Positions 11,414 to 50,700 are shown, counted from the stretch's first letter. The stretch: 64,000 nt of DNA from a virus (IMGVR_UViG_3300043438_000518:1-64000); one strand, 5' to 3'. The notes: a model not told the origin generated them from the letters alone. Program-made: numbers and translations.

Positions 11414-12937
11414 ATGCCTAATCAAAGTATTCCAAGGGTTAACGGGAGAGTTATAGCTAACGCTCACATGACCAGCTCATTCTATTCTAAAAATGGTTTG
11501 GGTAAATTGACAGACAAGAACTTCGTTGAAACCATGCTGCGCACTAAGCCTGATCAGTATGACAAAATGATGATTCGCCTTTTCACCGACACTAAATTGT
11601 ACAAGAACGACTTGTTGGATTTGGTAATGAAGACTGGTAAGCCTTTTATGGTTAACGATCCTAACGGAGTTTTCACCTACAAAATCAAGAAGCGTGCTGA
11701 GTTACCTAAGATCATTGTATCTACTGCTGCTACCTATCCAGGTCGTGATGGTTCTACTTTCGAATTGGTATTTGACAAGAACGTGTTTGTTGTTAACGAC
11801 ATTATCACCGGCCACCGCTATGAGCAAGAAACTCAAATCCAAATCGTTTCTGAAGGTGAAAAACACCAGAACGGTTTCAAGTACAAGTGTACTGCAGTAG
11901 GTGCTTCTTCTAGCGACTACGTAGCTGCTACTTTCTTGGCTGTAGGTGTTGAGTACTTCAAGATCGGTAACGTATTGGGTGAGTACACCACTTCATTCTC
12001 TAGCTTGGGATTGTTCGATGGTAACTTAGAAGTTATGGCTGATGTATTGCAACAGTATGGTGTTGAACACACTATCACTGACTGGGCTGATGCAACCAAA
12101 TTGGGTATGCAGACAGACGCTTCAGGCAATCCTATGGACATCACTTACTACTCTGTAAGCGATCCTATGGCTGAAGGTGAGAAAACCAAAATCGTTGGTT
12201 GGGAGCCTACAGTATCTCGTTTGCTCCGTATGGAGATGATGCGCATGAAAGCTAACACTTTGATGTGGGGTCGTCAAGGTAACGGTAAAGATGAAAAAGG
12301 TCGTCCTACTCGTGCTAAGCAAGGCTTATGGCAGCAATTGCACTTGGGTAACGTTATCTACTACGATCGTGGTCAGTTCTCTTTGAACTTGATTCGTACT
12401 GCTATCGGTGACTTGTTCTACAACCGTGTGTTGTTGAAAGACCGTAGCGTGAAGATCTACACCAACCGTTCTGGTATGGAGTTGGCTTCTACTGCTATCC
12501 GCAAAGACTTCAACGGTCAGAACTTCATGGTATCTGCTGATAAGTTCTTGGATGGTAAAGATCGTACTAAGCAAGGTTATGCTTTCCAATTCGATCACTT
12601 TATGACTACTGAGACTGGTCCAGTTGAATTCGTAGAATTAGAGCAATTGAATGAGCATGCTACTTTCTTGGAGTTGGGTCCTAACAAGAAGACTCCTCCA
12701 ATCTTCATCATCTTGGATGTAAGTGGTCAAGATGACGCAGGTATCCGTGAGGTAAAATTGTCTACTCGTCCTAACATGTACTATCAGTACATTGCAGGTT
12801 CAGTAGGATTCGGTGCTCAACAGACATCAATCGCTAGCAAAGATCCTTATTCTACCTACATCATGAAAGACTTCGCAGGTATCTTCTTGGAAGATCCTAC
12901 CAAGACTGTGATCATTAAAGAATTCCCTCGCATCTAA
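11414..12937 (+). CDS. Major capsid protein
   Basis: 507 aa in the canonical position; KQGLWQQL and IFLEDPTK near the C-terminus; strongly biased high-expression codon usage (TTC, ATC, CGT, GGT). Confidence 0.9.
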   Translation: MPNQSIPRVNGRVIANAHMTSSFYSKNGLGKLTDKNFVETMLRTKPDQYDKMMIRLFTDTKLYKNDLLDLVMKTGKPFMVNDPNGVFTYKIKKRAELPKIIVSTAATYPGRDGSTFELVFDKNVFVVNDIITGHRYEQETQIQIVSEGEKHQNGFKYKCTAVGASSSDYVAATFLAVGVEYFKIGNVLGEYTTSFSSLGLFDGNLEVMADVLQQYGVEHTITDWADATKLGMQTDASGNPMDITYYSVSDPMAEGEKTKIVGWEPTVSRLLRMEMMRMKANTLMWGRQGNGKDEKGRPTRAKQGLWQQLHLGNVIYYDRGQFSLNLIRTAIGDLFYNRVLLKDRSVKIYTNRSGMELASTAIRKDFNGQNFMVSADKFLDGKDRTKQGYAFQFDHFMTTETGPVEFVELEQLNEHATFLELGPNKKTPPIFIILDVSGQDDAGIREVKLSTRPNMYYQYIAGSVGFGAQQTSIASKDPYSTYIMKDFAGIFLEDPTKTVIIKEFPRI

Positions 12938-24400: not shown

Positions 24401-26493
24401 CATTTGGAGGAGACACTTATATTAATCAGTTTGCACTTAAACGTAAACACTCGTTCTTTACTCGTAACTTAGCTAACTTACCAGCTAAGGTAGATAATGT
24501 TCCTTTTGATTACTGGTTGTTTCCTAACTTAGGATATCCTACCTATTATGCAGGTAACTCCTCGGAACCTATTACTGCAGGAGATATAGCTGGATCTTTA
24601 ACTGCTCTTGGATTAGCTATAGCAGCAAAGAAAGCTCCTGCTTTACTTAACTTAGGATCACAAGCTGCAGCAGCTGCAGACCTCGCAGCTAATGCTGCTT
24701 TTGTAACTGCTTTTGCTTCTGTGTTAAATGATTATATTCCAAAAATTAATCTTGACTCAGCAAATAGTACTGCAGATGTAGACCGAGATGGATTCTTCTA
24801 CACAGCTTCTTATGGTATACCAGTATTCTATGTAGAGTCTGATATTAACGTAGACTTGCGTCATGGAAGAAATGACTTAGAAGAGAACTTCTATCCTAAC
24901 GTAGGAGATGGTATCCCAGATGACTGGTTGCATGAAGTAAACGTACCTATTAAGTTTGACAACTTCTATAGCTACAATGCTACTTACTCTGCACAGAACT
25001 TAAGTCCTAACTTACCTTATAGATTAAAGTATCCTTCTTTAGAGTGTTTGTCTATTCACCATAACCGTGTAATCTATTCTGATCCTGCAAACTCTTCTAA
25101 CTATCTTTCAGATGCTTGGAGAGTATTTCGTCCAGGTAATTTCTATGACTTCCCTAAGCAAGGAGGACGCTTAGTTGACTTAAATGCAGGAGAGAACGAA
25201 AGAGTATATGCTAGGTTTGAAAATACTACTAAGGTTTACAACTCTCGTATTACTCTAAGCACTACTTCTCCTTATCAGTTAGAGATTGGTAATGCAGAGA
25301 TGTTCAAACAGAAGCCTGTTGACTTGGCTAAGAGTGATCTAGGTTATATTGGAACTCAACACAAAGCTTATGTTAAGTGTGAGTACGGAACATTCTGGGT
25401 AGACGCTAAACGTGGGCATATCTATCAAATTACTGGAGACGGGTTTAACGAGATTAAAACAGAAAACAATTACAACTGGTTTAAGCAAAACTTACCTTTC
25501 CAAATCCTTAAAGATATTCCCAATGCAGACATTGACAATCCTCCTATTGGATTAGGTATTGTTATGGGATGGGATGAAAGATACGAGAGAGTGTTTATTA
25601 CTAAGTTAGATTACAGAGTCAAGCCTGAGTATAGACCTGGAAGTGCGTCAGTTGTACGATATATTACAGACGTGGCAGATAGTAATTATCTTAAGTATGT
25701 AGTAGATAGTGGAAGTATACAGATAGTAATTTCTTTTGGAGATCCAGCTTTCTTTGAGAACAAGTCTTGGACAGTAGCTTACTCCCCTAAGTTAAAGAAC
25801 TTTATTTCTTTTTACTCTTTCCTTCCTAACTTCTTTGTTCCTTTACTTGGTCATTTCCAAACTTTGATTAATACTTCTACAGGAGCATCTACTTGGAATC
25901 ATAACTTGTCTATCTATACTTATCAGAATTACTACAACAAGTTGTATCCTTATATTCTAGAGTATAATGTAAACTCTTTCCCGCAAGTATCTACAATTAA
26001 CTCTGTTACTTTGATGCAGGACATTCAGGAATACTATTCTGATTACGAGTACTATTCTTTGTCTACTGCTAACAAGAAAAACTTAGCAAACTTTACTAAG
26101 GCTATTATTTATAACAAAGAACAGTCTACTGGTATCATTAAGTTGATTCCTGAAGAGTTTGGTAACACAAGACAGAAGATTACCTATCCTAGAATGACAG
26201 CAACAGGCATAGAAGCTCTTATCTCTCGTAGAGAACACTTGTATACCTTTAATGGATTTTGGAACGTTGCAGCTCAAGGAAATGGTCAACCTCTATGGTC
26301 GACTCAGTGGAGTGACTTAGTTACTCAATACCCTATAGACAAAGTACCTAATACTAAGAGTGTAAGACCTGTGTCTGTATCTTATCAAAAGTCTAAGATC
26401 AAATCTGATTTTGCTAAAGTAAGATTGATTCAAGATCAGTACTCTAGATTTAAGTTTATTAACACCATTCAAATAACCCAAACCAACCCATAA
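21403..26493 (+). CDS. Tail stabilisation (muzzle, P22 gp10-like) protein
   Basis: 1696 aa; GLNLDS start, YQRDEVYPFGI, IRHHKFPD, FGGDTYI, SWTVAYS...FISFYSFLP. Confidence 0.8.
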   Translation: MDNKINQNIAGLNLDSVNYQIKENMITFALNANIQSHDGNSTTYTNESSNQLCFDFTSQYPGYKIVGNLSILEQSKLIVFLAHPDGRSLIGEITNLDKDCTTLTETEKDCGCVSGTVVTSTVGSQLGESLDTCCTFTPLIVDDCCQETGGCYFYSVESTEETGESNQAYTVNWTDCSGQPQSQTFFGIGFFLARRGEYVLPPNVRLISEVYEGGETPCEPGGGCCLKLSVDFPVYAEYRIDNCETKVYFVARNIQPRYFSLEEPLGRDQCGEPITSLSNACERLKLFPDFCQPEVYPTAVDSGGRLKGGVYSFSVAYADENGKELTDYIDFCNPIPIFERAITEQTEYETSKSIRVSIDHKTAIFDYFNLTVAENINEVTTYHLVGTYRVNQSSLSDSIIYTGDYSSTFSSITPLIRSPHYEHAEIIEKQNDILILADLVETPKYNFQPIANQIQLRWETVQMPVDKKFDYSNPEVAYFFRTYQRDEVYPFGIKFKLKNGKYTDVFHIPGRLANSTDFDPMDPANKDVFHIVNDCIAEEQSLRWQVYNTGSKGLMYSQNPANKQEEQYSCAIVPGEAGQFAYWESTETYPCYEEVWGDLAGQPIRHHKFPDSAITHIHKNDEPIIYPIGVRVQETVFESIVNNTTVYDPLNTYGNHQIPVKELICGYELVRGNRVNNKSVIAKGLVYDVGTFHDEDTGKNYYYPNYPYNDRGPDAFIKTDSKFYDKGDRGEFDFPMHSGFVNPVLYGTERFTFHSPDTHFQYPKIGTELKLETLEHGIVKGHFVPVLDHPKYKIIGKGTNLLSASIATLLSYVTSSESDLGVTAGSRSVFEGRVTEIITNTSIMKDLIEKSLSYRELAWQYNSVGNYTKYESIPNTGNKRRVLDIGLYANDKIVELNDNFPLHNRLRETSVYLKTNEPLENNFLLIRDTTRFTISQAGLEDNPSKIVESNTRAYYSSIKRNFPNQYGPIENIKYVSTGYSADVSLDDSGYLKVERTFYPAFGGDTYINQFALKRKHSFFTRNLANLPAKVDNVPFDYWLFPNLGYPTYYAGNSSEPITAGDIAGSLTALGLAIAAKKAPALLNLGSQAAAAADLAANAAFVTAFASVLNDYIPKINLDSANSTADVDRDGFFYTASYGIPVFYVESDINVDLRHGRNDLEENFYPNVGDGIPDDWLHEVNVPIKFDNFYSYNATYSAQNLSPNLPYRLKYPSLECLSIHHNRVIYSDPANSSNYLSDAWRVFRPGNFYDFPKQGGRLVDLNAGENERVYARFENTTKVYNSRITLSTTSPYQLEIGNAEMFKQKPVDLAKSDLGYIGTQHKAYVKCEYGTFWVDAKRGHIYQITGDGFNEIKTENNYNWFKQNLPFQILKDIPNADIDNPPIGLGIVMGWDERYERVFITKLDYRVKPEYRPGSASVVRYITDVADSNYLKYVVDSGSIQIVISFGDPAFFENKSWTVAYSPKLKNFISFYSFLPNFFVPLLGHFQTLINTSTGASTWNHNLSIYTYQNYYNKLYPYILEYNVNSFPQVSTINSVTLMQDIQEYYSDYEYYSLSTANKKNLANFTKAIIYNKEQSTGIIKLIPEEFGNTRQKITYPRMTATGIEALISRREHLYTFNGFWNVAAQGNGQPLWSTQWSDLVTQYPIDKVPNTKSVRPVSVSYQKSKIKSDFAKVRLIQDQYSRFKFINTIQITQTNP

Positions 26494-26497
26494 TATC

Positions 26498-26878
26498 ATG
26501 AAAGAAAAAGAACTCTTCACAACAGTTAAACCCGAAATAGTACTGGGACAGTTATTCCAGTCTAGGGACATCATTCACTTAGCTCACTTACAAACAACTT
26601 CGTTTAGTGAGCACAAAGCTTTAGACGGTTACTACTCAGAAGTAATTGGTCTATTAGATGATTTAGTAGAAGCATACTTCGGAACTATTGGAAAACGCTT
26701 AAACTTTAAGATTCCTGGATCAGAGTATATGAATGCTAAAGCTCATCTTACTTACATGAAAGACTATGTAATGAAGCATCGTAATGTATTCGGAAACGAA
26801 AACACCCATCTACAAAATATCGTAGATGAGATCATTGCTTTGATTACTTCTACTTTATATCAATTGACACTAAACTAA
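26498..26878 (+). CDS. Ferritin/Dps-like protein (DUF5856-like)
   Basis: HLAHLQTTSFSEHKALDGYY...DDLVEAYFG...LQNIVDEI four-helix pattern. Confidence 0.7.
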   Translation: MKEKELFTTVKPEIVLGQLFQSRDIIHLAHLQTTSFSEHKALDGYYSEVIGLLDDLVEAYFGTIGKRLNFKIPGSEYMNAKAHLTYMKDYVMKHRNVFGNENTHLQNIVDEIIALITSTLYQLTLN

Positions 26879-26896: not shown

Positions 26897-27703
26897 ATGA
26901 ACCGTTTAAAGAAATCTTATTCTACCTGCATGAGTTGCGGAGGTAAGAAAATGAAATCAGGAGGCAAGTGGATCCAGTCTGCTATTAAAAAGCCAGGATC
27001 TTTTACTGCACAAGCTAAGAATGCTGGTATGTCTGTACCTGCATTTCGTGATAAAGTATTAAGCAACAAAGAAAAGTTTTCTAGTACCACTGTAAAGAGA
27101 GCTAACTTAGCTAAGACTCTTGCAGGAATGCGTAAAGGAGCAGATGGTATGGAAATGGATATGCCTAGAGAAATGGATATGCCTACAGTAAAACCAATTG
27201 ATCCATTAAACATGGCGGCTAAGAGTACTTTAAACCAGTTAGAAGGTTCAAATCTTTCTCCTGAAAGACAGAAGGTAATGAAGTATCAGCAAATGCTTAA
27301 GAGTAAAGGATATAATATTGCTGCTGATGGAGCTTGGGGACCACAAACACAGAAGGCTTATGAGTCTTATATTAAGACTAAAACCTCTACAACTGCTAGT
27401 AAATCCAAGTTAAGTCCTGACTTAGAAGCTATTCATGGAACTCAGAATAAGCCAGTACGTATGCAAGAAATTTCTATTAAAGCTAAGAAGCCTATGAGTA
27501 CAGCTTCTAATTTAAAACAGATGCCAAATACCAGAATGGAACCTGCATATGTTACTAGTGCATTCAACAACCTTTCTAAGTATAAGAAAAACTCTCCTAA
27601 GCAAAACTCTTCTAAGATGTCTCCTTACAAGGGAGTATCTGCTAATGAGAAGTTAGTATTGGATCGCTTAGCTAAATACAAAGCAGGTAAACCACTTCGT
27701 TAA
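26897..27703 (+). CDS. Basic modular protein with a peptidoglycan-binding domain
   Basis: Lys-rich; WIQSAIKKPG...RANLAKTL module; PG_binding_1-like YQQMLKSKGYNIAADGAWGPQTQKAY. Confidence 0.65.
   Translation: MNRLKKSYSTCMSCGGKKMKSGGKWIQSAIKKPGSFTAQAKNAGMSVPAFRDKVLSNKEKFSSTTVKRANLAKTLAGMRKGADGMEMDMPREMDMPTVKPIDPLNMAAKSTLNQLEGSNLSPERQKVMKYQQMLKSKGYNIAADGAWGPQTQKAYESYIKTKTSTTASKSKLSPDLEAIHGTQNKPVRMQEISIKAKKPMSTASNLKQMPNTRMEPAYVTSAFNNLSKYKKNSPKQNSSKMSPYKGVSANEKLVLDRLAKYKAGKPLR
27152..27185 (+). repeat. In-frame tandem duplication with an 18-nt period (EMDMP x2)
   Basis: GAAATGGATATGCCTA occurs twice. Confidence 0.8.
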
Positions 27704-27706
27704 ATT

Positions 27707-28390
27707 ATGTTTGTCCCAGGAGTAAACGGTTCTATAATTCCCAGTGCACCCTCAGGTTCTAAGCTTAAGGGTGCATATAAGAATTCTAAAAAACGTAAGA
27801 TGCCTAATGGCGGAATAGAACTTGCTTTAGATGCAGCTTCTTACATTCCACCACCAGTAGGTACAGTGGCTTCACTTCTTGGTGCAGGTTTGAATGCCTA
27901 TCAGGGGGATTATACAGGAATGAGTCTAGACTTAGCTAGTGCTGCTAGTGGTGGAGCATCTAAGTGGTTTGGTGCAGCTGCAGATGCTGCAAAGATGGCT
28001 AATTCTGCGAGACTTGCTTCAAGTATGGCATCTAAAGCTAAAACATTTCAAACTTTTTCTAATCCAGTAATATCTAAGACAGCATCAACAGTTAGAGATT
28101 TTAGTTCAGCTACGCAAAACTCTCCTTATAACTCAACTATAAGAACTCCCCAGAGGGATAATGCTCAAGTACAATTTAGACCTAATCCTAATTTACGTAG
28201 GATGGAAGAAGGCGGAGAAGTAGAAGGTGATGATAAAGAGATGGTAGATGGAGTAGCTGCTATCTTAAGAGGAGTTAAAAGTAAATCAAATAGACTACAG
28301 TTAGCAAATAAACTTGCTAAACAATTTAATAGAGAAAAAGTAAACTATGACTTATCTTCTTTCCTAAAAAAATCTAAAGTAAAGAAATAG
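27707..28390 (+). CDS. Putative internal virion protein with a glycine-zipper / pre-toxin-TG-like segment
   Basis: LDAASYIPPPVGTVASLLGAGLNAYQGDYTG hydrophobic motif; contains MxxGG motifs. Confidence 0.5.
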   Translation: MFVPGVNGSIIPSAPSGSKLKGAYKNSKKRKMPNGGIELALDAASYIPPPVGTVASLLGAGLNAYQGDYTGMSLDLASAASGGASKWFGAAADAAKMANSARLASSMASKAKTFQTFSNPVISKTASTVRDFSSATQNSPYNSTIRTPQRDNAQVQFRPNPNLRRMEEGGEVEGDDKEMVDGVAAILRGVKSKSNRLQLANKLAKQFNREKVNYDLSSFLKKSKVKK

Positions 28391-28391
28391 T

Positions 28392-29012
28392 ATGTTGTCT
28401 TTAACAGAAGATCAGGTAACTAAGTACATCACTAACAAGAGTCGTAGTGGAGTTATTTATAAAATCACCAACCTAGTTAATGGTCATTTTTACATAGGAA
28501 GTAGCCAGAACTTTATTAAAAGATATTATACACACCTTAATCATATAAGAATAAATAAAAGCTCTTGTACTGTTCTAATTCGTGCAGTTATTAAATACGG
28601 AGAGGACAATTTTAAATTAGAGATAATAGAAGAATGTGAAACTCAAGACCTACTTGCAAGAGAACAACATTACTTAGATACTTTATTGCCTGAGTATAAC
28701 GTGGCAAAGATTGCAGGAAGTAACACTGGAATAAAGAGAAGTAAAGAAACCAAGGAAGCAAAGTCTGCGCAACAAAAACAAAACTGGCAAAATACAGAAT
28801 ACAAAAACAAACACTTAAAACTATTATCTAAGAATTGGAAATCTGGAGAAGCACACAGTATGGCAAAATTGACCGAGTCAGACGTAGTTAAGATAAAAAC
28901 AAAACTACAATTGGGACATAAGCCAAAAGAAGTTGCAGATATGTTAGGACTTAGTTACTATTCTGTAAAAGACATCCATAGAGGTAAAACTTGGAAAAAC
29001 GTAATAATATGA
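28392..29012 (+). mobile_element. Freestanding GIY-YIG homing endonuclease
   Basis: SGVIYKITNLVNGHFYIGSS...REQHYLD...YNV catalytic domain, NUMOD-like GIKRSKETK and a C-terminal HTH (AKLTESDV...GKTWK). Confidence 0.9.
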
Positions 29013-29572
29013 AAAAGAAATTAAATAAACTGGGTGTAGAAAATTCTTTATGGAATAACATCCGTGCTAAGAGAGGTTCTGGAAAGAAGCCTACTCCAGA
29101 GATGCTTAAACAAGAACGCAAGATTAAAGCTAAGATGGCTGACGGTGGTAAGATGCCTACCTCAGTAGCTAAAGCAAGATTTGTAGCAGCTAATAGTGGA
29201 AACGTATCTGAAGCTAGACAAGATGCTTCTAAGTATGGTTACAAATTTATGGCAGGCGGCAGACTTAAAGCTGCTTACATGGCTAAGGGAGGAAACATTG
29301 CTAAGACTACTAAAGGTCCAGGAGCAAACTATCGTCCTACTAAACAAGGAGCAGGTATGACTAAGAAAGGTGTAATGGCTTATCGTAGAGCAAACCCTGG
29401 ATCTAAACTAAGTACTGCTGTTACAGGTAAGGTAAAGCCAGGTAGCAAAGCAGCTAATCGTAGAAAGTCCTACTGTGCTCGTTCATTAGGTCAATTGCGT
29501 AGATCCTCTCAGGCTACACAGAATGATCCTAATAGCAGAATCAGACAAGCACGTAGGCGTTGGAAGTGCTAA
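29009..29572 (+). CDS. Very basic modular protein (DUF6321-like C-terminus)
   Basis: ATG at 29009; LWNNIRAKR module; GAGMTKKGV.AYRRANPGSKL...RRKSYCARS...RRWKC module. Confidence 0.65.
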   Translation: MKKKLNKLGVENSLWNNIRAKRGSGKKPTPEMLKQERKIKAKMADGGKMPTSVAKARFVAANSGNVSEARQDASKYGYKFMAGGRLKAAYMAKGGNIAKTTKGPGANYRPTKQGAGMTKKGVMAYRRANPGSKLSTAVTGKVKPGSKAANRRKSYCARSLGQLRRSSQATQNDPNSRIRQARRRWKC

Positions 29573-29598
29573 TAACTAAATAAACTAAAACTAAATAT

Positions 29599-29754
29599 AT
29601 GGCCGCTAAAGCATCTAAATCAAAATCAACTTCTACTGCTTCTAAGTTTAAAGTTAAACCAAAGATTCGCAGAAAGGGAGTAGTAGCAAAAACTAAAGCT
29701 TCAAAGTTAAAGTCTAGTAAGAACTACTTAAAGAAATCACGAGGTCAGGGGTAA
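29599..29754 (+). CDS. 51-aa Lys/Ser-rich histone/protamine-like protein (not in the ORF track)
   Basis: MAAKASKSKSTSTASKFKVKPKIRRKGVVAKTKASKLKSSKNYLKKSRGQG; A-rich leader upstream and a terminator at its end. Confidence 0.7.
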   Translation: MAAKASKSKSTSTASKFKVKPKIRRKGVVAKTKASKLKSSKNYLKKSRGQG

Positions 29755-29777
29755 GCAATTACCCCTTGCTTTTTTTT
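29747..29777 (+). terminator. Intrinsic terminator
   Basis: AGGGGTAA-GCAA-TTACCCCT-TGCTTTTTTTT. Confidence 0.85.
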
Positions 29778-29795
29778 ATTAATCTTGTATATTTG
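29766..29795 (+). promoter_or_regulatory. Bacteroidota-type promoter for the cargo genes
   Basis: TTG-N19-TATATTTG, overlapping the terminator. Confidence 0.75.
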
Positions 29796-29858
29796 TATAA
29801 CTAGCTTATTCTCAAGCACTTATTAACATACTAAGTTAATAACATTAATCATTAAAAC

Positions 29859-32219
29859 ATGTTAAGAAACAATCTTTTTAAGAGATTTGGTCAATCAGGT
29901 ATGAAAGAACCTGTAGACAAAATATCTGGAGCAGGTCTAGAGCCTATTCAAGACTATCCTACTATAGAAGAGATAGCTAGTAAGATTAAGCCTATCACTA
30001 AAGATATGATGGGATTAGGCAAACCTAAGAATGAAGGAGAGTATGAAAAGGCATATGGAGAGTTGGAAATCTCTCCTGCTAAAAAATCTTCTATTGCTCC
30101 TATTACAGAACGTCAAGGTATAGGAGATAGAATGTCTGCAGATATACGTAATCAAGATCAAACCTTAGATGAAGCAGAATATTTTACTACTACTCCTGAA
30201 AGTATACAAGATGCTCAAGATGTAAGTAATGAAGTAGCTTCTCAGTATAATCCTAAAACAAAAAAGAAACTTCCTAAATTTGGAGAGGACTTTGGAGATG
30301 CATTAAATCTTGGATTACTAGGATTAGATGCAGCTCTTACATATAATCAAGACTTAGAAAATCAACGTAAATTAACTGAATCAATTCAACAAAAAAACTC
30401 TAAACCTCTTTACGACTATAACTTTATGTATGGTCCTACTACTAGTGGTGGAACAGAGTATCAACCTACAATCAAAGCCGAAATGGGTGCAAAAATAAAT
30501 AAACGTTATGCTAGTGATGGCATGAACGATGTAGAGATCGAAGGAGGAGAGTTTATCCAACTTCCAAACTTAGAGACAGAAATAGCTGAAGGACCCTCTC
30601 ATGAGAATGGAGGTATCCCTACAAACCTTCCTGATGAAACTCGTGTTTACTCTAACAACTTAAAGCCAGAAGGCTCTAAGAAAACCTTTGCTCAGATTGC
30701 TAAGAACTACGATACTACTTCATATAAGAAAACCTTAGAGAATCCTTTTGCTAAACAAGTAGATAAGGATACTGCAGGTATTATGATGCAACGTAATCAA
30801 AAGATTCTTGATGAACTCTTCAGAGACCAGCAGATTATGAATGGTAATTCTAACGGGGAAGTAGAAGCTAAGAATGGAGCAGGTATCAATAACCCAGGAT
30901 TTAAATCATTACCTGGTTATGTACAAGCTAAAATTACTGCTAATATGAAAGACGGAGGTAAAAAGAATCCTCAACCAGATGTTACAAGTCTTCCTCCACA
31001 ACTTCGAAACTACGCTAAATGGGATCCCGGATTTCAAAAGAAAGATGGTTCTATTGGAGCTTATAGATTAGAAGTACCTGCAGGTTTAGATCAAGATGCA
31101 CTTACTAGTGTAGCAAGGGCAGCTGAGTCTTACGGAATCAGCAACTTAGTTCAAACATCTAATACAAGAATGCAAGGAGCTCCTGGTATTAAAGGATTCC
31201 ATTCAGGACTTTCTCCTCAAGACTTCGAAAAGAAAATTGTAGCAGAAAGTATAGGTAAAGAACAGGCAGGAAAATTAAATGAATTAGAGACTCGTCAAAA
31301 AGCTTTTGAGTTAATGGGGGTGGATACTGAAGGGTATGATGTAAACGATGCTTCTAAATTATATGCTGATGACTACTTTAGAGAAAAAGCATTCTATCCT
31401 GCATTTCAAAAATACTTACCTGAAAATAAATTTAGGGCACAAGAAGGCGATGATAAAATGTTTGGCTTTGAGCATTATGATGCAATTAAAGCTAAAACTC
31501 CTCCAGGAGAAACCCCAGAAGAAACCCCTAAACAGGATGTAACTGGAGGAACTCCTGTTGGTGAAGTGGGAAAACCAGTAACAGGTAAATACACTAGAGG
31601 ACAGTTTCCTTTGTATCAAGCTATTCCTGAAGCTATGGGATTAGCTCAAGCACAAGAAATCTACTCTTATGCTATTCCTGAAGTAGACGCTCCTTACGTA
31701 CGTCCTCAGACTTTAAACATTCAGAGTGAGTTACAAGACATTGATAATATGGGAATGGCAGCTATGAGATCAGGAGCAGATCCTAACATGGCTTACATCG
31801 CAGGATTAGACGCTAAACAAAAAGCTTTTCAGTCTAAGCAAAACTTCGATGCTCAGGGACGTTCTCAAGCTGATATGGCTAATGCACAAATGAGTATGCA
31901 AGCAGATCAGTTTAATGCTCAGGCTTTTGATCGTGTATACAATAACTTAGTAGGCCAAGCTAGAGATGCTCAGTCTGGAGAAAAGTTAGCAGCAGTTGCT
32001 AGTTTAACAGAGAAAAGAGGTAAATTTGAACAAGACGAAAACCTTAAAGCTATGGGTATTCCTATTGTTGCTCCTGGCTATGATGTTAATTCTACAGGTG
32101 ATATGAGTTTACCTGCAAATATGAAAGCTGCTTTTGACTATTATAATTATATGAAAGATCAAGATGCTAAAGCAACTAAGACAGCTAAAAAAGGAATGTA
32201 CAAAAAATCTAAAAAGTAA
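29859..32219 (+). CDS. Internal virion / ejection (cargo) protein 1
   Basis: VEIEGGE...GPSHENGGI motif typical of crAss-like cargo proteins; Ala/Gln-rich C-terminus; upstream of the vRNAP. Confidence 0.7.
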   Translation: MLRNNLFKRFGQSGMKEPVDKISGAGLEPIQDYPTIEEIASKIKPITKDMMGLGKPKNEGEYEKAYGELEISPAKKSSIAPITERQGIGDRMSADIRNQDQTLDEAEYFTTTPESIQDAQDVSNEVASQYNPKTKKKLPKFGEDFGDALNLGLLGLDAALTYNQDLENQRKLTESIQQKNSKPLYDYNFMYGPTTSGGTEYQPTIKAEMGAKINKRYASDGMNDVEIEGGEFIQLPNLETEIAEGPSHENGGIPTNLPDETRVYSNNLKPEGSKKTFAQIAKNYDTTSYKKTLENPFAKQVDKDTAGIMMQRNQKILDELFRDQQIMNGNSNGEVEAKNGAGINNPGFKSLPGYVQAKITANMKDGGKKNPQPDVTSLPPQLRNYAKWDPGFQKKDGSIGAYRLEVPAGLDQDALTSVARAAESYGISNLVQTSNTRMQGAPGIKGFHSGLSPQDFEKKIVAESIGKEQAGKLNELETRQKAFELMGVDTEGYDVNDASKLYADDYFREKAFYPAFQKYLPENKFRAQEGDDKMFGFEHYDAIKAKTPPGETPEETPKQDVTGGTPVGEVGKPVTGKYTRGQFPLYQAIPEAMGLAQAQEIYSYAIPEVDAPYVRPQTLNIQSELQDIDNMGMAAMRSGADPNMAYIAGLDAKQKAFQSKQNFDAQGRSQADMANAQMSMQADQFNAQAFDRVYNNLVGQARDAQSGEKLAAVASLTEKRGKFEQDENLKAMGIPIVAPGYDVNSTGDMSLPANMKAAFDYYNYMKDQDAKATKTAKKGMYKKSKK

Positions 32220-34008: not shown

Positions 34009-37000
34009 ATGCCACAAGATCCTATAATTGCATTACTTCAGAATCAAGGACTAGATCCATTTACACAATCTAAGCCAGTATCTCGTCTACAGGCTGCTAG
34101 TATATCTACATCAGCTGCCGAAATAAGTAGAGCAGCTGCAGCACCTTTTCAAGCACAGTTGACTATTGGTAAAGGAGTAAATGATATTTTAGCAGGAGGA
34201 GCTAAAGCAGAGATGCTTAGCCCTTATGAAAACGTATCTAGTTCTATGCTTAAGGGAATTGAGATTCCTCAGATAAGTTTAGACAAAGGAATACAACAAG
34301 AGATTAAAGTATCTGCCGATGTATTGAGTAGGACTTTAAGAGAAGGAAGTCTTGAAGAAAGTCAAGCGGCATTAAAAGAACTACGTGATAAGTATAATAA
34401 TATTTCTAAGTCTGTTTTAAGTAACAAAGAAAAAGAAAACTTAAGACAAGCTTATGCAGGTTTAGTAGAGCAGGTTAACCAGATCAATACGTTTAAATTA
34501 GCTAAACAACAGACTGATTCTTTCTTTTCTGAAAATGCTTTAGAGGACAGAGAAAAGGGACTTAAAGACTTTAATGCTAACTCACGTCTTCCTCTTTCAC
34601 TTAAATCTAAACAAACTAAGAACTCTGACATTATCAATAGTCTTGCAGATTTAGAATCTAATAGAATAGGATCTAGACTATATAACGAAGAAGACTTATC
34701 TACTTTTAAATCTACCTATGTAGATACTGATAAGGATCTTTATGCTGGTATGGAAATGCAGTATAATTATGCTGTTAAGCAATCAGTAGATGAAAAGATC
34801 AACGACTATCAGAAACAAATCCAAGATTTAGATTCTCAAATTAAGCAGTCATATGATCAAGGTCAGAAGAATGCGTTAGCTATGCAGAAAGCAGGTGTAG
34901 TAAAAGAACTTAACTACGCTAATAACCTTTCTCAGAAACTTAAGCCTTACACTAATGAAGATACTTACCTAAAGAACTTCTACCCAGAAGAGTATACTAA
35001 GAAAAAAGATAGACAAAAACAGGAAGTATATCGTAATGAAATGCTTGCTGAAGGTGATCAAGGATCTTGGTCAGAAACTCTATATAGAAGTGCTCAGAGT
35101 ATAGGTTCAAATTTTACCAAACAAATTTCAGGTGCAGCTTATTTTTTTGGAAACAAAGAACTTGGATACAGACTTAAGTCTGCTGCAGAGTCTATTGCTC
35201 CTCCTACTTACTTTGTAGGTAAAGATCTAAACAAGAATAGTAAAATAGACGATTCTGAAATTACTAGAGACATTCATGGTAACCGAGTTACTATGAGTCA
35301 AGTAAGATGGATAGATAAAAGCGGAGAGTCTCATTGGAACCTATGGGCTCCTGTAGAACAAACTCTTCCTATCTTAACAGACGTACTTACTACTATTGCA
35401 ATTTCTAAAGGATTAGGTGCAGTAGGTAGAGGTGCAGGATTAACTTATGGTAGGATGGGTGCTGCTGCAGGATTAGGTGAAGCTGCAAATGCTAGCTTTG
35501 TAAAAAACTGGGCTCCACGTATTTCTACTATGGGTATAGTAAGTGCTACAACTTTCCCTAGATTTTATGCAGAAGAACGCTCTAACTTTAAGAACTCTGA
35601 TGATGCATTTAAAGTAGCTACTATGCGTGCGGCTGTAGAAGGTCTTACAGAATCTATTGTACCTGATGTAAACATGTTTAGTGGCAAGATTGCTTACGGT
35701 GCTTTAGATCCTGCATTTGCTAAACTAGGTAAATTAGATCCTGCTAGTCTGAGTCGCTTAACAGTTAAGAGAGATGTTCTATTAGGACTATTACCTAAGG
35801 GAGCTATATCACCTGCTAAGGCTGCTTTGTTAATGGCTCCTGCAGCTCTAAGAAGAACTCTAACAGGAGCTTCTCAAGAAGCTATAGAAGAACTAGGTTC
35901 TTTAGTAGGTAACTATGTTGTAGATCAGTATGCTTCTAATCAAAACTTTGAAGTAGAAGAAACTAATCAACTAACAGGTGAGGCTTTCTTAGATACTTTT
36001 GTAGAAGGTTTTATTCCTTCTTTGTTTATTTCAGGGGGTTCTACTTTACTTGCTAAAGGAGCAATGAAAAAAGAACGCTTAGATCAAGCAAGATGGAACA
36101 TAGCAAACAACCCTGAAAAGTATAAACAGTTAATCGCTAACCAAGTTCAAAACCAAAAGATCACCAAAGACGAAGGTTTAAAAAGAACTGTTGCAATTGA
36201 TAGACTAGCTAAACAGTTAGACGTTATTCCTGAAATTCAAAACATCAAGAGTCTAACTACCTTATTGGATGACAAAGAAGCTCAGTATAACTTCTTTAAT
36301 AATGTTCTTTTTCAAGAAGATCTTCTTACTGTAGATACTACACAGTTAAGTGAAGAACAAGTAGAGCAACATAAAGAGTCTTTGGCTAAAGTAAGTAAAG
36401 ACATTCTTACTACGAAAAATCTAGCTGATAAGTATGCTGGACTAGAGGAGAACGATAAGAAAGCAATCATATCTAAACTGTTTGATAAGCAAGCTCAGGC
36501 TGCAACCTCAGAGGATGCTACTCTTTCTTCTATTATGTTTACTGCAGAGCAAACTAAACAAATGATGGTTACTGCTCCTGTAAACGATCCTAGATACGAA
36601 TTTATTAACGAACAGTATAAGAACTTTCAAAGCAAGGTAGATGCTAATATTAGAACTAGGGTTGAGAACTTTGCTTCTAGATTAGAAAACACTCCAGAGC
36701 AAGTAACTCTACTTGAGTTGCAGATGGCACAAGATACCTTCTTACCTGCATTAGAACGCTTAGATGCTTTAGATAAAGGTATGCAGGTAGAGAACTCTCC
36801 TATGGCTCCAGAGATAGGGCCTATGCCTGAGAATACTCCTGAGTTAATGCAGGCTATTAAAGATGAATTAGCTTCTAGAAAAATAATATCAGCAGAAGAT
36901 TTTAATCGTGAAGTAAGTCAGAACTTAAAGAATCCAGAAACCAAACAAGTACAAGAAGCTCAGTTAAGTGTAGCAGAGTTGTCTGAAGAAGAACTTGCTA

Positions 37001-40000
37001 CTGGAGAGCTGAGTGAAACAGCTCACGAACATTTAAGTGATACACAAAAATTTTCTTTAGCGACTAGTTTACAAAATCACAAAAAACAAAAAGATCAGTC
37101 TCCTAGTGAGTTAACTGACTTAGAAGAGTTTAGAAACAGAACTCTGTTTAATATATACAAAAGTAGTTTAGAAGGTCTTACTCCTGAAAATCAGGTAGCA
37201 AAGATTATAGAGATGAACAAAGTTGCTTTGGGCATAGCTGTAGATACTCCAGCGGTTAATAACTTCTCTGCTAATCCTACTAACACTGCTGTTCCCGTAA
37301 CTCCTGCACCTGTAGTAAACATACCAGGTCAATTAGACGAAGTAGACAGAGAGGTTTACACTGAGTATGCTAATTACTTGGCTGAGTTTAATCAACAGTT
37401 AGCAGACTTCGATCCAACTGCTGATGAGACTCGTACAATGGTAGCTGAGTTTAACAAGAATCTTTTTGACAGTCTTTTATCCTTAGATTCTTTAAACGCA
37501 GTTAGGTCTGCTTTGTTGGCTGTTTATCCTGAGAATGTATTAGGAATTGAAGCTATGTATGAAGCAGCTAAGCAGGGTAATATAAACTTAGATTCAATAC
37601 AATTTAGCCCAAAGAAGAAAGAAAGATTTATTGCTCGTTTAAAAACTCTTATGGGTGAAGCAGACTCTACTCCTGAAACTCCTGTAGTTGAAACACCAAC
37701 TAATGAAGTATTAGAAGAAGCACCAGAGATTGCAGAAGATGGAGAAAATAATCAAACAGATAATTATGACTCAGCACAAAAGTCAACTGAATTAAGTCTG
37801 ACAAATCTTCTTAAAGGAACTAAAGGATTAGAACTTCAGTTAATATCTGTAACAAAAGAAGACGTATCCCTTAACGATCCAGCAGTAAATCTTGCTTATA
37901 GCATTATGGAGTTTTACTCTGAAGCAGAGCGTTTAGGAAAGAGTCTTGCTATGAAAGTTAGAATTCAAAGCATGATGGGTATTTATGAGTTCGTACTGCC
38001 TGCAGGATCTGTAGAAAGATTAAACGAATTAAAACAACTTAAGTCTTTGTCTCCTGAAGAGAAAATAGAGTTAAGAGATTTATTATCTGTAAACAATCGT
38101 CCTATTCATAATGAAGGAATGTTGTCTTTCTTAGAAGAGAATCCTTCTGAAATAGGTACTGGAGTAGGTACTGCGTTTGTAAACTCTGACAATAACTTGC
38201 TTAAGTTTACAGCTAAAGGAAAACCATCTACTGCTAAGACTGCTTTTGTTTTCATTCCTGCTATAAAGAAAACAGGAATACAATCAGAGAAAGAGATTAG
38301 AGAAAGAGTTGGCAGAGGAGAAATTTTAGTATCACCAATTTCAGGAATTGTATCAGGAGTGGATAAAACTTCTCCCTTAACTAACGCAGTAGGTGAAAAC
38401 ATTTATGTACACACAGGACCTGCGACTACTATTAAAGGGGCACAAAAAGTCTATACACTTAAACCTGGGGTTGTGTACTTACAGAAGGAAGATGCTCGTT
38501 ATCAGTACACAGGTATAAACATTCCTACTAACGGAAGTGATATTCAAATTCTTGTTAATGCTTTTAACAATGGTACTCTTCCTCAAAATATAGATGAGTC
38601 TATCAGACAAGATGCTAGTCTATTCTTAAACTACTTAAACAGACAGATAAACTCTACCAAAGTAGGCAAGGAAGAAACTTTAAAGATTAGATTCTTTAAA
38701 GGGGCTAATCTATTCCTCTCAACTACTAATGATAATAAACTTATAGTAAAGTATCAAGTAGAAGGTAAGGATGGTAAAAAGTATTTAAAGCCATCTAAGA
38801 ACCAAGACGAAGACTTGCTTAAGATTGGACAATCTTCTTACAAATTAGTAGATGCAAGATTCTTAGAAGATAACAAGCCTTACACTGCTTTAGTAGTAGA
38901 TGCTAAAGGTAAAATAAGCACTAAGCAATTTAACTCTTACTCTGACTTTATTAAGAGTCCTGAGTTTGGAGCAAACTACGTAAGAGAAGAGAATAGAACA
39001 TTCTCTTTTAGTCCTGAGCTTGAGTCTCTGAATACATCTTCAGTTGCTGTGGATGAAATAGATACAACTCCTATTGCACCTATTAGTGAAGTACCGACTA
39101 CTCCTACTCAACCTGCAGATGCTAGAGCTGATATAGAAAAAAGAACTACAAAAATAATATCTTCTGAAATTGTAGAAAAAGGAAATAGAAAAGGTCAAAC
39201 AAGAATCGTAAGTCAGACTAATTCTATTACAGATTTAGAGGGTACACTAGTAAGTGTCACAGAGTATGAAGCAAAAGTGGGAGATACTACAGTTGGACTT
39301 GGAGGTAAATCCATGACTCTTAAACAATTTAAAGAAGAGTTTCCATTAGACGAGGATTATGTAGGAATATTTGAAGGATTAGATGATGACTCAATTATTA
39401 CAGTAATAAAAGTAAAAAGAGTTCCTACTAGTTCAAGATTTAATAGTGTAGTAAGTATTTATACTGTCCAGTATGGTAAAATGGATGCAGGCATTAAAAA
39501 TGATGATGTAAAATATAACGCAGAACTGGCTGCTTTAGAACAGCCTACTCCCCAACCTGCAAAAGGACCTAAAAGACTTAGTAGAAGACCTACACTTTAT
39601 AAGGATCCATCAGAAGACTCTCTTATTGATCCAGACTTTTTCTTTAGAGCAAAAGCTTTAAGCAACTCTATCACAGGTAGGCAGAATACTTTAGCAAAAG
39701 CTTGGGTAGCTAATCATCCTATATTTAAAAATACTCCTTTCATCTTTGATGAGACTATCAGTCATCCTGAAGCTTATGCTGTATGGTCAAAGGCAGGTAT
39801 CTTCTTATACGAAGGAGCTAACTATGCAGAAGCGTATCATGAAGCATGGCATGAATTCTCTCAGTTGTATTTAACTCCTGAACAGAAAGCTGCTTTGTAT
39901 GCAGAAGCAAGAGAATTGTATGGAGATTTAACGTTTGTACAACTAGAAGAAAGATTAGCAGACGACTTCCGTGCTTACGCTTTAAGCGAAGGCAAAGAGT

Positions 40001-47741: not shown

Positions 47742-50700
47742 ATGTTTTGTCCTAACCTATCAGATCCTACTATAAAAGCTCAGTTTGAGTCTCTCCAATC
47801 TATAGTCCCAGAGTATGCTTATTATCTCTGGGATAAGTATCAGGGAGATGTTCCTGCTAAGTACTATAACCTATCTACTGCATTTATAAGAGATGGAGTG
47901 TCTGAATTGTTTGAGTCTAACCCTGAGTTAGTTAACATAGGTACACCTCAACAATACTCTCAGTACTTAGATTCTATCTTTCCTGGAAGTAAAGTAAAAG
48001 ATATTCTTTATCACAGTAGATTTACTATTGATAACATTAAAAATAAAGATAGGTGGAAAAATGGTTTCTACTCTGGTACTAGAGATCAAGCAGACTTGAT
48101 GGCTGAAATGGCAGAAGACGGCAGTAATGACCTGATGACAACTGTTGCTTTATTAATTAATATGCAAAATCCTAAAGTAACTGATTTCGTAGATAGAAAA
48201 GTTGAAAATTATAAAAACACAAATGATGGTTTTATTATAGAAGCTACTCAAGAAGATGCTTTACAATTAATTGGAGACAGGGATGGGTATAATCCAGAAA
48301 ACTTTAAAAAAGAGTATGTAGTATTTGAACCAGAACAGATACATATATTAGGAAACAAACAAGACATAGATGGGTTTAAAAAGTTTGTAGCTACTTCTAC
48401 TATGCCTATTAGTATGCCTACTACTATGTTTAGTAGGAAGGATGCTAAGTTTGTATCTGACAGATTTATTCGCTTAGAGAGACAGTATGACTTCCTTAAA
48501 GAGTCTCAAATGGATCCTGAGTACTGGAAACTTAATAGTATCGCAGATAAGAAACAATACGTAGCTAAGAAACAGTTTGATACTGTAGTAAAAGCAATAG
48601 AAGGTAGAGAGTCTGTAAGAGTAGCTGATAACAAAATTTACTTATCATCTACCAAAACAGTTAAAGGAGGTAAAGTTCTTTATGGTTATGCGGCAGGTTT
48701 AGCTTCAGACATAAATAAAATGTATCCTTTAGTAACTGATGCTTCTCCTGCTTATGCAAGAGAAGATTCTAATGGAGAAGTCTACGTAGAATTTGACTTA
48801 AGTGGTCGTTATGCTACCTTACTAGTAGAGGGAGTAGAGTTCCTAGAAGAAGAATCTATGAGAGCAGAGATAGAACTAATGGATATTCATGATGCTATTC
48901 GTAGAGAGAAGGCTGCTATCATGGAGAAATTAGAATCTGCAAACGAGGTAGTCATTGACGGAGAAGTTTATGCTTACACAGGATCAATGTTCCAAAAAGG
49001 ATTTGCATTAACTCAAGCCCTTAAAGACCCACAGATTAAAAACTATACTAAGTTACTAAATAGATTGGTTTCTAAATTTCCTGGAGTTACTTGGAAGTGG
49101 AACACTGAAATACCTGAGGTAGCAAAAGTAAACTTAGCTACAGGACAGATAGAAATTAATCCTACTCTTATACAAGAAGATACTCCTTGGCATGAGTTCG
49201 GGCACTTTGTAGTTAGAGGAATCAGAGAATCTAATCCTGAACTATTTGAACAGCTTAAGAAAGAAGTAGAAACTTTACATAATGAAACTCCTAATTCTTC
49301 TTCGTATTCTCATGTAGAAGCTTCTTATCCTGAGTACTTAGGAACAGATTCATTCTGGGAAGAAGTTATCGTAACTGAGTTAGGAAGACAAGCTGCTAGA
49401 AAAGAAAACAGAAGTTTGTTTGACAAGGTACTTGATTGGTTTAAATCTCTTATTAAAGACCTAGGAGGAAGAAGTACTGAACAGTTAGCTATGTCTAGTT
49501 TAGTAGACTCTTTAGTAGATCCTAGTGTTGCTTTTGAGACAGAGTTCAACGAAGAAGCAGTAAGTGATTATATGTTCCAAAGGATTGTTCCTGCAGAAGA
49601 AGTTGATGCACTTACTAGCTATGTAAAGATTTCGCCTAATGATCCTTTTGTATTCCAAGACTACGCAGAAAAAGTACAAGTAATCGCTAATGCTATTAGT
49701 GAGACTGAATTTAAAAAGATCTTAGACACAAACAAATACTTAGGCTTAGGTAGTGAGTCTCTCCAAAGAGCATTAGCTGCTATCAAAGAAGTTAAGAACA
49801 TTGTAACTAAAGAAGATGTAGCCGCCTCTGTATTAGAACTTGCAGATTACTTACAGTACAATGCACTTTACTTAACAGGAGTTGTTCGTCACTTAAACAA
49901 CATTCTAGAAGATCCTACTATCCCTTCTGGTAAAAAGCTAGGAGACTTGCATAGAGGTTATAAGCAAGCTTTAGCTATTGAGAAACATGTTAAGAAGATA
50001 GAAGCCTTGTTTACTACTCGTGCTTTAGATGAGATGATGCGTAGTGAAGTCCAGAAGGATGCTTTCCTTAAGAACCTTTCTTGGATGCGTACAGCAATTG
50101 CTACTATTAAGAATGGTCATAACAATAAGATTGTTGATCCTGTAATAACTGAACTTGCTGATACCTTTAAGGCACAGTCTAAAGACATTGAAGATTCTTT
50201 CAATAGAGATATAGAAAAGTTAAAGTCAAGGACACAAACTGCTACTATTACTAAGAGAATCAAAGAGTTAGAAAAAGAAAAGCAAGATAGTTTGCTTACT
50301 CCTGAGAACATTAAAAAGTTCTTAGCAGACACTAACTCTCCTTGGTACTTAGCTATTGACTCTGCAATGGGAACAAAGAACCCAGGAGTTCAGTTGATTG
50401 CTAACTACATAAGAAGTATTAATAACGAGTTTCAAGAAAACTTAAAGCCTATAGCTAGTGAGTGGCAAGATCTTATGGATGATGTTGCTGCTAGTGAAGG
50501 AGGATTTATAGGTTCTGCATTAGATACTAAAAAGTTTTTTGAACCTTTCATTAGAGAAACAGTTCTTTATGAAATCATTGATGGTCAATTAGTTAAAGAC
50601 AAAAAAGTTCTTTCGCTTAACACAGAAGTTAAAACAGTTGAGTTAGGTAACAGAATTACTGAGTTAAAGCATACAATTGATTTTGGAGCAACCGAAGAAA

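Follow-up and report, generated by a model that had tools for sequence, protein, structure and literature searches.

The window analysed here is the stretch of 64,000 nucleotides (nt) at the start of a virus record (IMGVR_UViG_3300043438_000518:1-64000) that comprises 104,260 bp on a single contig and is estimated to be 88% complete. It encodes a Crassvirus major capsid protein (11414-12937, E value 2.4e-31, Pfam), tail ring proteins 1, 2 and 3/4 (also detected with Pfam), and a muzzle protein. Beyond the muzzle gene, in the block 26897-32219, lie four genes, here called g1 to g4, whose products share a short peptide of the form h-x-x-Gly-Gly (hxxGG), where h is a hydrophobic residue (Table 1). 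Downstream of g4 are an open reading frame (ORF) of 572 amino acids (aa) and then giant ORFs of 4,563 and 2,111 aa, the giants starting at 34009. In Bacteroides phage crAss001, as the published description has it, the cargo proteins C1 (gp45) and C2 (gp46) follow the muzzle gene and are followed in turn by the RNA-polymerase-associated giants, and mass spectrometry of virions detected C1, C2, and these giants (Bayfield et al. 2023, PMC10172136). The genes g1 to g4, sitting between the muzzle gene and the giant ORFs, occupy the cargo-gene position of crAss001 and therefore belong to the cargo block of a crAss-like phage, here an uncultured marine one. The position of C1 itself is taken by g4, and a phmmer comparison of g4 with Protein Data Bank (PDB) chains showed no similarity to gp45.

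Table 1. Genes and sequence motifs at the cargo locus and in the giant ORFs (positions in the window; aa, amino acids; pI, isoelectric point).
Feature	Position	Strand	Description
Muzzle protein	21403-26493	+	crAss_MUZ, 2.4e-36 (Pfam)
DUF5856 gene	26498-26878		Directly 3' of muzzle gene; PHROG label 'starvation-inducible transcriptional regulator'
g1	26897-27703	+	268 aa, pI 10.2
MSCGG	26930	+	g1, tandem pair MSCGG-KK-MKSGG (26930..26965)
MKSGG	26951	+	g1, directly before first helix of WIQ module
g2	27707-28390	+	227 aa, pI 10.1
MPNGG	27800..27814	+	g2, leader/cargo seam
MEEGG	28202..28216	+	g2, seam between cargo and constant C-terminal module
GIY-YIG homing endonuclease	28392-29012	+	GIY-YIG, 3.6e-12; inserted between g2 and g3
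g3	29009-29572	+	187 aa, pI 11.4; DUF6321 at end
MADGG 29135, FMAGG 29246, MAKGG 29279	29135..29293	+	Three g3 seams
Small basic ORF	29599-29754	+	51 aa, pI 11.8, 18 Lys + Arg, zero acidic residues, without motif
g4	29859-32219	+	786 aa, pI 5.2
MKDGG	30945-30959	+	g4, single seam motif
HExxH	39838..39852	+	Residue 1944 of 4,563-aa protein; candidate zincin site, motif only
HExxH	49191..49205	+	Residue 484 of 2,111-aa protein; candidate zincin site, motif only

An earlier reading of the window, made from the sequence only, had listed eight [MF]xxGG pentapeptides in the four genes, and all eight were found where it had placed them. The motif also proved to be enriched there. In a count over ATG-initiated ORFs of at least 50 aa, made non-overlapping, from the whole 104,260-bp genome, the four genes (1,468 aa) accounted for 7 of the M-x-x-G-G sequences, and just one more was present in the remaining 30,479 aa; for [MF]-x-x-G-G, the numbers were 8 in the four genes and 4 elsewhere in the genome. 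A Met at position -3 accompanied 7 of 13 Gly-Gly pairs in the four genes compared to 1 of 118 elsewhere (Fisher p = 1.2e-7), and none of 20,000 within-protein shuffles reached seven M-x-x-G-G (mean 0.37, maximum 5). Elsewhere in the window, [MF]xxGG was limited to FISGG of the 4,563-aa protein and FANGG of a portal-like ORF. When any hydrophobic first residue was allowed, there were 45 matches in the rest of the genome, which means that the enrichment contrast rests on Met or Phe plus context. Other details of the sequence-only reading fared less evenly. A Lys or Arg precedes only five of the eight copies. The variants AEMG (30477), AKNG (30867), and AKKG (32184) are present where they were reported, but counting them as the same motif was unsupported. 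The [RK]LKxxY strings upstream of the motif are present and are conserved in relatives. Finally, the description of the proteins as basic is correct for g1 to g3 (pI 10.1 to 11.4) but not for the acidic g4.

The profile of the motif is based on 397 unique contexts; these share descent and hence are not independent. The first position was M in 71%, L in 10%, F in 10%, and Y in 6% of the contexts, and the residue before Gly-Gly was never Pro. Gly-Gly was followed by K, T, S, R, or N and then, in 66% of the contexts, by a hydrophobic residue. The Gly codons of the motif vary and follow genome usage, which means that selection acts on the protein. For the same reason, a recombination signal at the level of the DNA was unsupported.

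Comparison with relatives agreed with the earlier claim that the copies lie at the borders of short self-contained modules: the motif is a conserved punctuation at these borders, and the modules are found as separate genes in other phages. The g1 protein begins with a leader that contains RLKKSY, C-x-x-C-G-G, and then the tandem MSCGG/MKSGG at residues 12 to 23. This is followed by a helical 'WIQ' module at residues 24 to 82 (phrog_20603, 5.8e-18 on residues 24 to 80) and, at about residues 124 to 156, by a weak peptidoglycan-binding repeat (PG_binding_1, E value 0.001, below the cut-off). The N-terminus of g1 had 124 relatives of 147 to 469 aa, and at least one hxxGG was present in 119 of the best 120. 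Aligned to a fused relative of g1, g2 starts at the residue that follows YGMGG. The g2 protein, for which there were zero matches in Pfam, NCBIfam, and PHROGs, begins with a constant leader of 31 aa, which ends in KKRK-MPNGG; a variable cargo rich in Ala and Gly comes next, then RR-MEEGG and a constant C-terminal module of ~57 aa. The leader and the C-terminal module are kept throughout the g2 relatives, which range from 92 to 642 aa. In the 92-aa forms, the leader is joined straight to the C-terminal module with one motif, and the larger forms carry up to ~550 aa of unrelated cargo between the two. Among the cargo-bearing forms, the leader-side motif was present in 6 out of 6 and the full motif on the side of the C-terminal module in 5 out of 6 (the window included); the form from locus L005 has QKNGG. 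LKDGG, LKKGG, LKNGG, or FEKGG replace MEEGG at this seam in g2 relatives.

The g3 protein is made of four pieces and reads LWNNIR module, MADGG, a 37-aa piece, FMAGG, RLKAAY-MAKGG, and DUF6321 module. DUF6321 (PF19846) was detected at residues 121 to 191 with 40.9 bits against a gathering cut-off of 28.5 (E value 3.3e-10). There were 6,970 g3 relatives of similar length, and in the 40 that were inspected among the best 120, swapped N-terminal modules are attached to DUF6321 at the same motif seams, the M of the seam sometimes being replaced by L, I, Y, or F. Two g3 relatives (P0242 and P0243) contain a ~245-aa insertion that splits a small basic module; it starts with Cys and ends before Ser and is intein-like by eye, and no intein family was found in it with Pfam. 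In g4, a conserved domain was detected at residues 219 to 296 (phrog_15413, 1.5e-8), with otherwise no family match in Pfam, NCBIfam, and PHROGs. This domain is also encoded after the muzzle gene of Flavobacterium phage FpV4, and the g4 motif is kept as M[AK][DN]GG in relatives.

The same gene row was carried by 24 related viral contigs in which g4 identity was 49 to 100%. In the nine of these 24 loci that were inspected, the places of the motif were constant while g1 measured 80 to 357 aa and g2 92 to 642 aa. The modules between the seams were swapped, inserted, or lost in relatives, and the seam motif was retained. Among the distinct proteins from the 24 loci plus the window, a motif within the first 50 residues was present in 14/14 g1, 15/15 g2, and 12/15 g3 proteins. 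The N-terminal leaders that end in the motif are short, 4 to 35 aa, and look like propeptides; the copy at residue 17 of crAss001 gp45 is placed in the same way. As a separate observation, the capsid protein is 81 to 100% identical over 43 related loci while the lengths of g1 and g2 vary 4- to 8-fold in the same lineage; a very stable shell is combined in this lineage with a cargo that changes fast.

AlphaFold2 (AF2) models are consistent with these borders. In the model of g1 residues 1 to 85, the predicted local distance difference test (pLDDT) score was below 50 for the leader (residues 1 to 22) and 70 to 90 for a four-helix module (residues 24 to 82), whose first helix begins immediately after MKSGG. 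The model of g3 was poor, with a mean pLDDT of 54.8 and residues 42 to 97 below 50. As modelled, the motifs sit in a low-confidence linker directly ahead of a module helix. Foldseek searches against the PDB gave no match at an E value of ≤0.001 for the g1 module (best, 2.5) and none at ≤10 for g3, and the best Z of a wide VIA-align search was 4.7, which is uninformative for a helical bundle.

Modules of the same kinds were found in other phages that carry the Gly-Gly seam. In Pelagibacter phage HTVC027P, nine small genes after the portal gene encode them singly or in pairs. Among 54 of the 82 coding sequences annotated in the first 50 kb of this phage, the nine-gene row had 6 hxxGG in 760 aa compared to 15 in 12,782 aa of the 45 others. 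HTVC027P gp52 consists of DUF6321 only; its start lies one residue past the Gly-Gly position, and the motif is absent. The DUF6321 module of g3 (29294-29569) is 87% identical to gp52 over 91 aa, and by tblastn only DUF6321 and PolA are in common between the two phages. This high identity could reflect either a recent transfer between phages of different host phyla or extreme constraint. In Cellulophaga phage phi4:1, the post-muzzle gene product gp040, which is annotated as a virion protein from tandem mass spectrometry and is a counterpart by position only, has six copies of the motif, one of them three residues from the C-terminus. Next to it, gp041 combines a tail-lysozyme domain with one motif copy and two HExxH, and FpV4 has few motif copies. 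In crAss001 gp45, F-x-x-G-G occurs at residues 17, 260, and 559, and the F/I-x-x-G-G set adds residue 444. The F and the Gly-Gly at the 559 site were invariant in 34 of 34 distinct homologues, which have 3 to 6 copies per protein. The parts of C1 described as resolved are residues 214 to 245 in the tail barrel and 425 to 552 on the portal (PMC10172136), and thus three motifs flank structural units.

Joined and separate forms were also counted for DUF6321. From 150 representatives at 50% clustering, 63 were missed by the anchor pattern and left out, and the 87 anchored ones comprised 33 with [LIVMF]-x-Glu (hxE) upstream, 29 stand-alone proteins, 14 with hxxGG, 4 with Gly-Gly but without the hydrophobic residue, and 7 others. 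The stand-alone representatives begin 'MPARNKKNF', and the fused ones read '..KKGG-MPARNKKNF'; fused hxxGG forms often retain the downstream Met directly after Gly-Gly. Since the stand-alone products start where the seam ends, a cut at the seam would yield the same products as separate genes.

The same modules also occur with a different seam. DUF6321 ends many long proteins (649 hits of 329 to 2,000 aa), whose relatives are mostly from T4-like cyanophages; by tblastn, 313 of the 394 matching phage records were Synechococcus phages, and in some records these long modular proteins are annotated as 'structural protein' or 'virion protein'. Seams were counted as unique contexts in 118 of the best 120 long proteins (P0244-P0361), two g3-type proteins with an insertion having been dropped. 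Every anchorable module type was preceded by [LIVMF]-x-Glu. It stood just before the DUF6321 anchor in 48/48 contexts, before the 'PSAYA' module in 24/25, and before the 'GLRDWF' module in 16/16, and in 27/28 contexts of the 'CWKGY' module the Glu was 1 to 4 residues before the anchor. Among background tripeptides, 1.7% are [LIVMF]-x-E. Few hxxGG were present in these long proteins (93 in 78,399 aa), and the recurring copy lay inside one module in the ten cases inspected. A good example is SSM2_109 of Synechococcus phage S-SM2 (L033:19998-22124), a 708-aa protein encoded between gp16 and gp17, the two terminase genes, which has zero hxxGG and has hxE at its seams. S-SM2 also encodes gp21, annotated as 'prohead core scaffold and protease', and its gp22 and the N-terminus of its gp23 carry hxE too. 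The motif of the T4 head protease is worded L/I-x-E. T4-type head proteases are described as cutting C-terminal to Glu after a short motif (PMC5694885, PMC9026906). Judged by its residues, the [LIVMF]-x-Glu seam is this T4-type motif. The seam code of the shared modules thus appears to follow the phage lineage, being hxxGG here and hxE in the T4-like cyanophages. Because the same modules have a lineage-dependent seam, and one of the two seams is a known protease motif, a lineage-specific reader is favoured over a passive hinge, and such a factor probably reads the seam. The link of the hxxGG and hxE seams through shared modules is new in this analysis.

The reading favoured here, to which we assign a probability of about 0.45, is that the h-x-x-Gly-Gly seam is a lineage-specific processing site. 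The block 26897-32219 would encode virion cargo (ejected) proteins in which small modules, each mobile on its own, are strung together. The seam, which K/R or Y usually precedes and which is followed by a polar or basic residue and then a hydrophobic one, would lie in a disordered linker before folded modules and behind leaders. Cleavage by a protease, at Gly-Gly or immediately behind it, would strip off the N-terminal leaders and release modules such as LWNNIR, WIQ, and DUF6321, whether within the particle or once the proteins have been injected. We infer the cutting itself, and with it the exact place, timing, and agent, because the motif is under selection at the level of the protein, lies at joints and leaders, and is absent from stand-alone modules whose products start at the end of the seam; for this combination, cutting is the simplest explanation. 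Tandem copies of the motif have a precedent in the propeptides of giant phages, which are described as holding several redundant cut sites (PMC9026906). A bolder proposal is that h-x-x-Gly-Gly is the cut code of an undiscovered crAss-like cargo protease that would dismantle cargo polyproteins and strip leaders, in parallel to what [LIV]-x-Glu would do for these modules in T4-like cyanophages. Zincin-like domains that are packaged together with the virion RNA polymerase may be this protease. We put the proposal forward tentatively, as something that may well prove wrong.

Several observations weigh against processing at the seam. First, no protease that could do it was recognised. The statement of the sequence-only reading that a prohead protease is not recognisable was upheld both among the ORFs (Pfam, PHROGs) and in six-frame searches. 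The six-frame searches of the genome for C48, C5, S77, S78, ClpP, and C39 gave zero matches, including 0 matches at an E value of ≤1 for PF00770 and PF02902 (adenain-/Ulp1-type, clan CE) and 0 for PF03420 (the S77 prohead protease). Since the record is estimated to be 88% complete, a protease gene could be missing from it. Second, the zincin domains that had been named as possible candidates correspond to two HExxH motifs that do exist in the giant proteins (Table 1), and these regions had no Pfam peptidase hit and no match in PDB sequence searches, which gave nothing meaningful with g4, both HExxH regions, or the 482-aa peptidase described below. An HExxH is also present at residue 2157 of crAss001 gp47. 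Iyer et al. 2017 (PMC5512222) predicted a role in the processing of such proteins for zincin-like peptidase domains in giants of the virion RNA-polymerase type; the HExxH sites would fit these domains and are the only candidates seen. Besides HExxH, the 4,563-aa protein (34009-47700) has DFDID at residue 3326 and, C-terminally, a 2OG-Fe(II) oxygenase domain at residues 4290 to 4505 (4.9e-14).

Third, a 482-aa protein encoded on the minus strand outside the window (genome 71523-72971, L027:7523-8971) matched phrog_4191 'peptidase' (5.6e-27). Its nearest clusters are viral M42/M28/M20 aminopeptidases (0.97), and it has two C-terminal CxxC pairs. It was rejected as the seam protease because these aminopeptidases are exopeptidases and its gene lies among replication genes. 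Relatives of it occur in Cellulophaga phages phi38:1 and Calle. Fourth, a reader shared with HTVC027P was rejected because only DUF6321 and PolA were common by tblastn; in the first 50 kb of HTVC027P, HExxH occurs only in the polymerase. Fifth, the capsid protein is without Gly-Gly and the ORF at the scaffold position is without the motif, so that, unlike in T4, the motif is not used for maturation of the shell, and these sequences make it unlikely that a classical head-maturation protease, one that trims the shell as well, is at work. Sixth, some copies lie 2 to 3 residues from the C-terminus (phi4:1 gp040, HTVC027P gp46), where a cut would free nothing useful. Seventh, crAss001 C1 is treated in its published description as one continuous chain from tail to capsid, and the main text of that paper has 0 occurrences of cleav*, proteoly*, or protease (PMC10172136). 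Finally, the T4-like parallel is an analogy in which the cyanophage cuts are themselves putative. In the literature searched, the motif was not found described, and no papers were found on DUF6321 or on proteolytic processing in Crassvirales; the SDS-polyacrylamide gel electrophoresis band list of Shkoporov et al. 2018 does not assign gp45 in the text.

Other explanations of the motif were weighed against the same evidence. The strongest of them, although we consider it unlikely, is that the motif is an uncut docking handle, a short linear peptide through which the cargo is loaded or positioned by binding to the capsid interior, portal, scaffold, or DNA. It would work in the manner of encapsulin cargo-loading peptides or of the targeting half of the T4 capsid targeting sequence. 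This would account for a strictly conserved 7- to 8-residue pattern within disordered, fast-changing sequence, for its presence in every g1 and g2 protein of a cargo block, and for its occurrence at either end of a protein and in tandem, as would suit avidity. However, stand-alone modules such as HTVC027P gp52 and the 29 among 87 anchored DUF6321 representatives do without the motif, which means that it is not needed per module. In addition, there is no conserved partner in common with HTVC027P by tblastn, and the account of the resolved C1 (residues 214 to 245 and 425 to 552) describes no ordered density at motifs 17, 260, and 559 (PMC10172136).

A passive joint is improbable; in this case the motif would be read by nothing and would stop a helix and act as a flexible hinge, allowing module-by-module folding and threading through the tail. 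Both AF2 models have Gly-Gly either at the end of a helix or in coil, with the next helix directly after, and the cargo must, by the published account, traverse the tail partly unfolded (Bayfield et al. 2023, PMC10172136), but a hinge needs neither a hydrophobic residue three before Gly-Gly nor a strict Gly-Gly. It would also be unexpected after 4-aa leaders or 2 to 3 residues from a C-terminus, and the hinge of a given module should be alike in all lineages, unlike hxxGG and hxE.

A fusion scar, meaning an old C-terminal tail of separate genes left behind by stop-codon loss and cassette exchange and without a present role, we regard as quite improbable. Fused forms do keep the downstream initiator Met right after Gly-Gly, some separate proteins end in the motif plus 2 to 3 basic residues, and modules are exchanged between unrelated phages, the DUF6321 of g3 and that of the pelagiphage being the example. 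Nevertheless, the motif is under purifying selection across relatives with g4 identities of 49 to 100% while its flanks diverge, substitutions at its first position stay hydrophobic, and it also follows leaders that are not modules. A signal in the RNA, with the conserved ATG as an internal start or GGAGG as a Shine-Dalgarno-like element so that modules are translated separately, was rejected as very improbable: Met is the prevailing first residue, often with Lys codons before it, and GGAGG is found at 57% of motif Gly pairs (68/119), but F, Y, L, or I stand at the same seams in relatives, GGAGG is equally common off-motif (74/123), the Gly codons follow genome usage, and no start codon lies at a fixed distance downstream.

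Some neighbouring features were recorded as well. The GIY-YIG homing endonuclease is outside the motif system; a copy at the same site was present in only 2 of the 24 related loci, and elsewhere g2 and g3 overlap by 4 nt. For g3, the ATG at 29009 was preferred over the TTG at 28991 as the start because it fits the relatives better. An ORF of 50 to 54 aa is held by relatives at the place of the small basic ORF, and an ORF of 126 or 131 aa occupies the DUF5856 place in all nine related loci inspected. A weak match to ATE_C, the C-terminal domain of arginine-tRNA-protein transferase, lies on the minus strand outside the window (genome 94002-94673; 4.2e-5, just below the cut-off).

The crAss-like phages are among the most abundant viruses of ocean and gut and carry megadaltons of injected protein. 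The seam peptide marks their cargo genes and the limits of the functional units in them, and it shows where processing might occur. Because it is present in the cultured crAss001, it is a directly testable handle on cargo biology. The lineage dependence of the seam code suggests a general rule by which mobile cargo modules are adapted to the particle machinery of each phage. If an undiscovered protease does read the seam, seam codes would track the protease of each lineage, and cargo repertoires, mature products, and protease specificity would become readable from the sequences of uncultured phages, including C1 of gut Crassvirales.

Several known systems resemble this one in part. Adenovirus protease cuts (M/L/I)xGG, and pS273R of African swine fever virus cuts after Gly-Gly in core polyproteins. 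Like g1 to g3, the precursors in these viruses have a Gly-Gly-centred site with an upstream hydrophobic residue and are basic proteins that travel with the genome. Nevertheless, the analogy with adenovirus that the sequence-only reading drew did not hold in its details: all eight copies and their relatives have h-x-x-G-G rather than the h-x-G-G|x or h-x-G-x|G of adenain (MEROPS C5, clan CE), in which the hydrophobic residue is at P4, a register that is off by one, and no C5 or C48 family match that would indicate an adenain-type system was found in six frames of the record, itself an estimated 88% complete. The inference of that reading that the motif is a capsid-targeting code or releases DNA-condensing peptides likewise found no support. 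The virus realm and the capsid lineage differ as well. The internal proteins of T4 (IPI-III, Alt) are, as described, small, mostly basic, and carried in the particle like g1 to g3, and they have an N-terminal leader and motif with variable cargo (PMC9026906, PMC5694885). With such leaders of T4 packaged proteins can be compared the conserved leaders on g1 and g2 that end in the motif. Compared to the T4 capsid targeting sequence and gp21, the prohead protease that cuts these internal proteins, the motif here ends in Gly-Gly and not Glu, no S77 protease was found, and the proteins at the capsid and scaffold positions are without the motif. Polyvalent proteins, as portrayed in PMC5512222, are likewise multimodular and delivered with the DNA, and their HExxH domains occur in giants of the virion RNA-polymerase type. 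Here, however, the motif-bearing genes are separate from the giants bearing HExxH, which was assigned by motif only, and the words 'glycine' and 'linker' are absent from the main text of that paper.

The two closest comparisons are with phage cargo. Like g1 to g4, the genes of C1 and C2 of crAss001 have the muzzle gene on one side and the giant genes associated with RNA polymerase on the other, and gp45 carries F-x-x-G-G; at that place, crAss001 has no equivalents of g1 to g3. The modular proteins of the T4-like cyanophages (SSM2_109, and 'gp114' of S-RIM8 and S-SSM7) differ from g1 to g4 in that their seam is [LIVMF]-x-Glu, that a gp21 protease is encoded alongside them, and that hxxGG is rare. 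Like g3, they string DUF6321, 'PSAYA', and other modules together in one gene, and like g1 to g4, they have a short conserved peptide at every seam.

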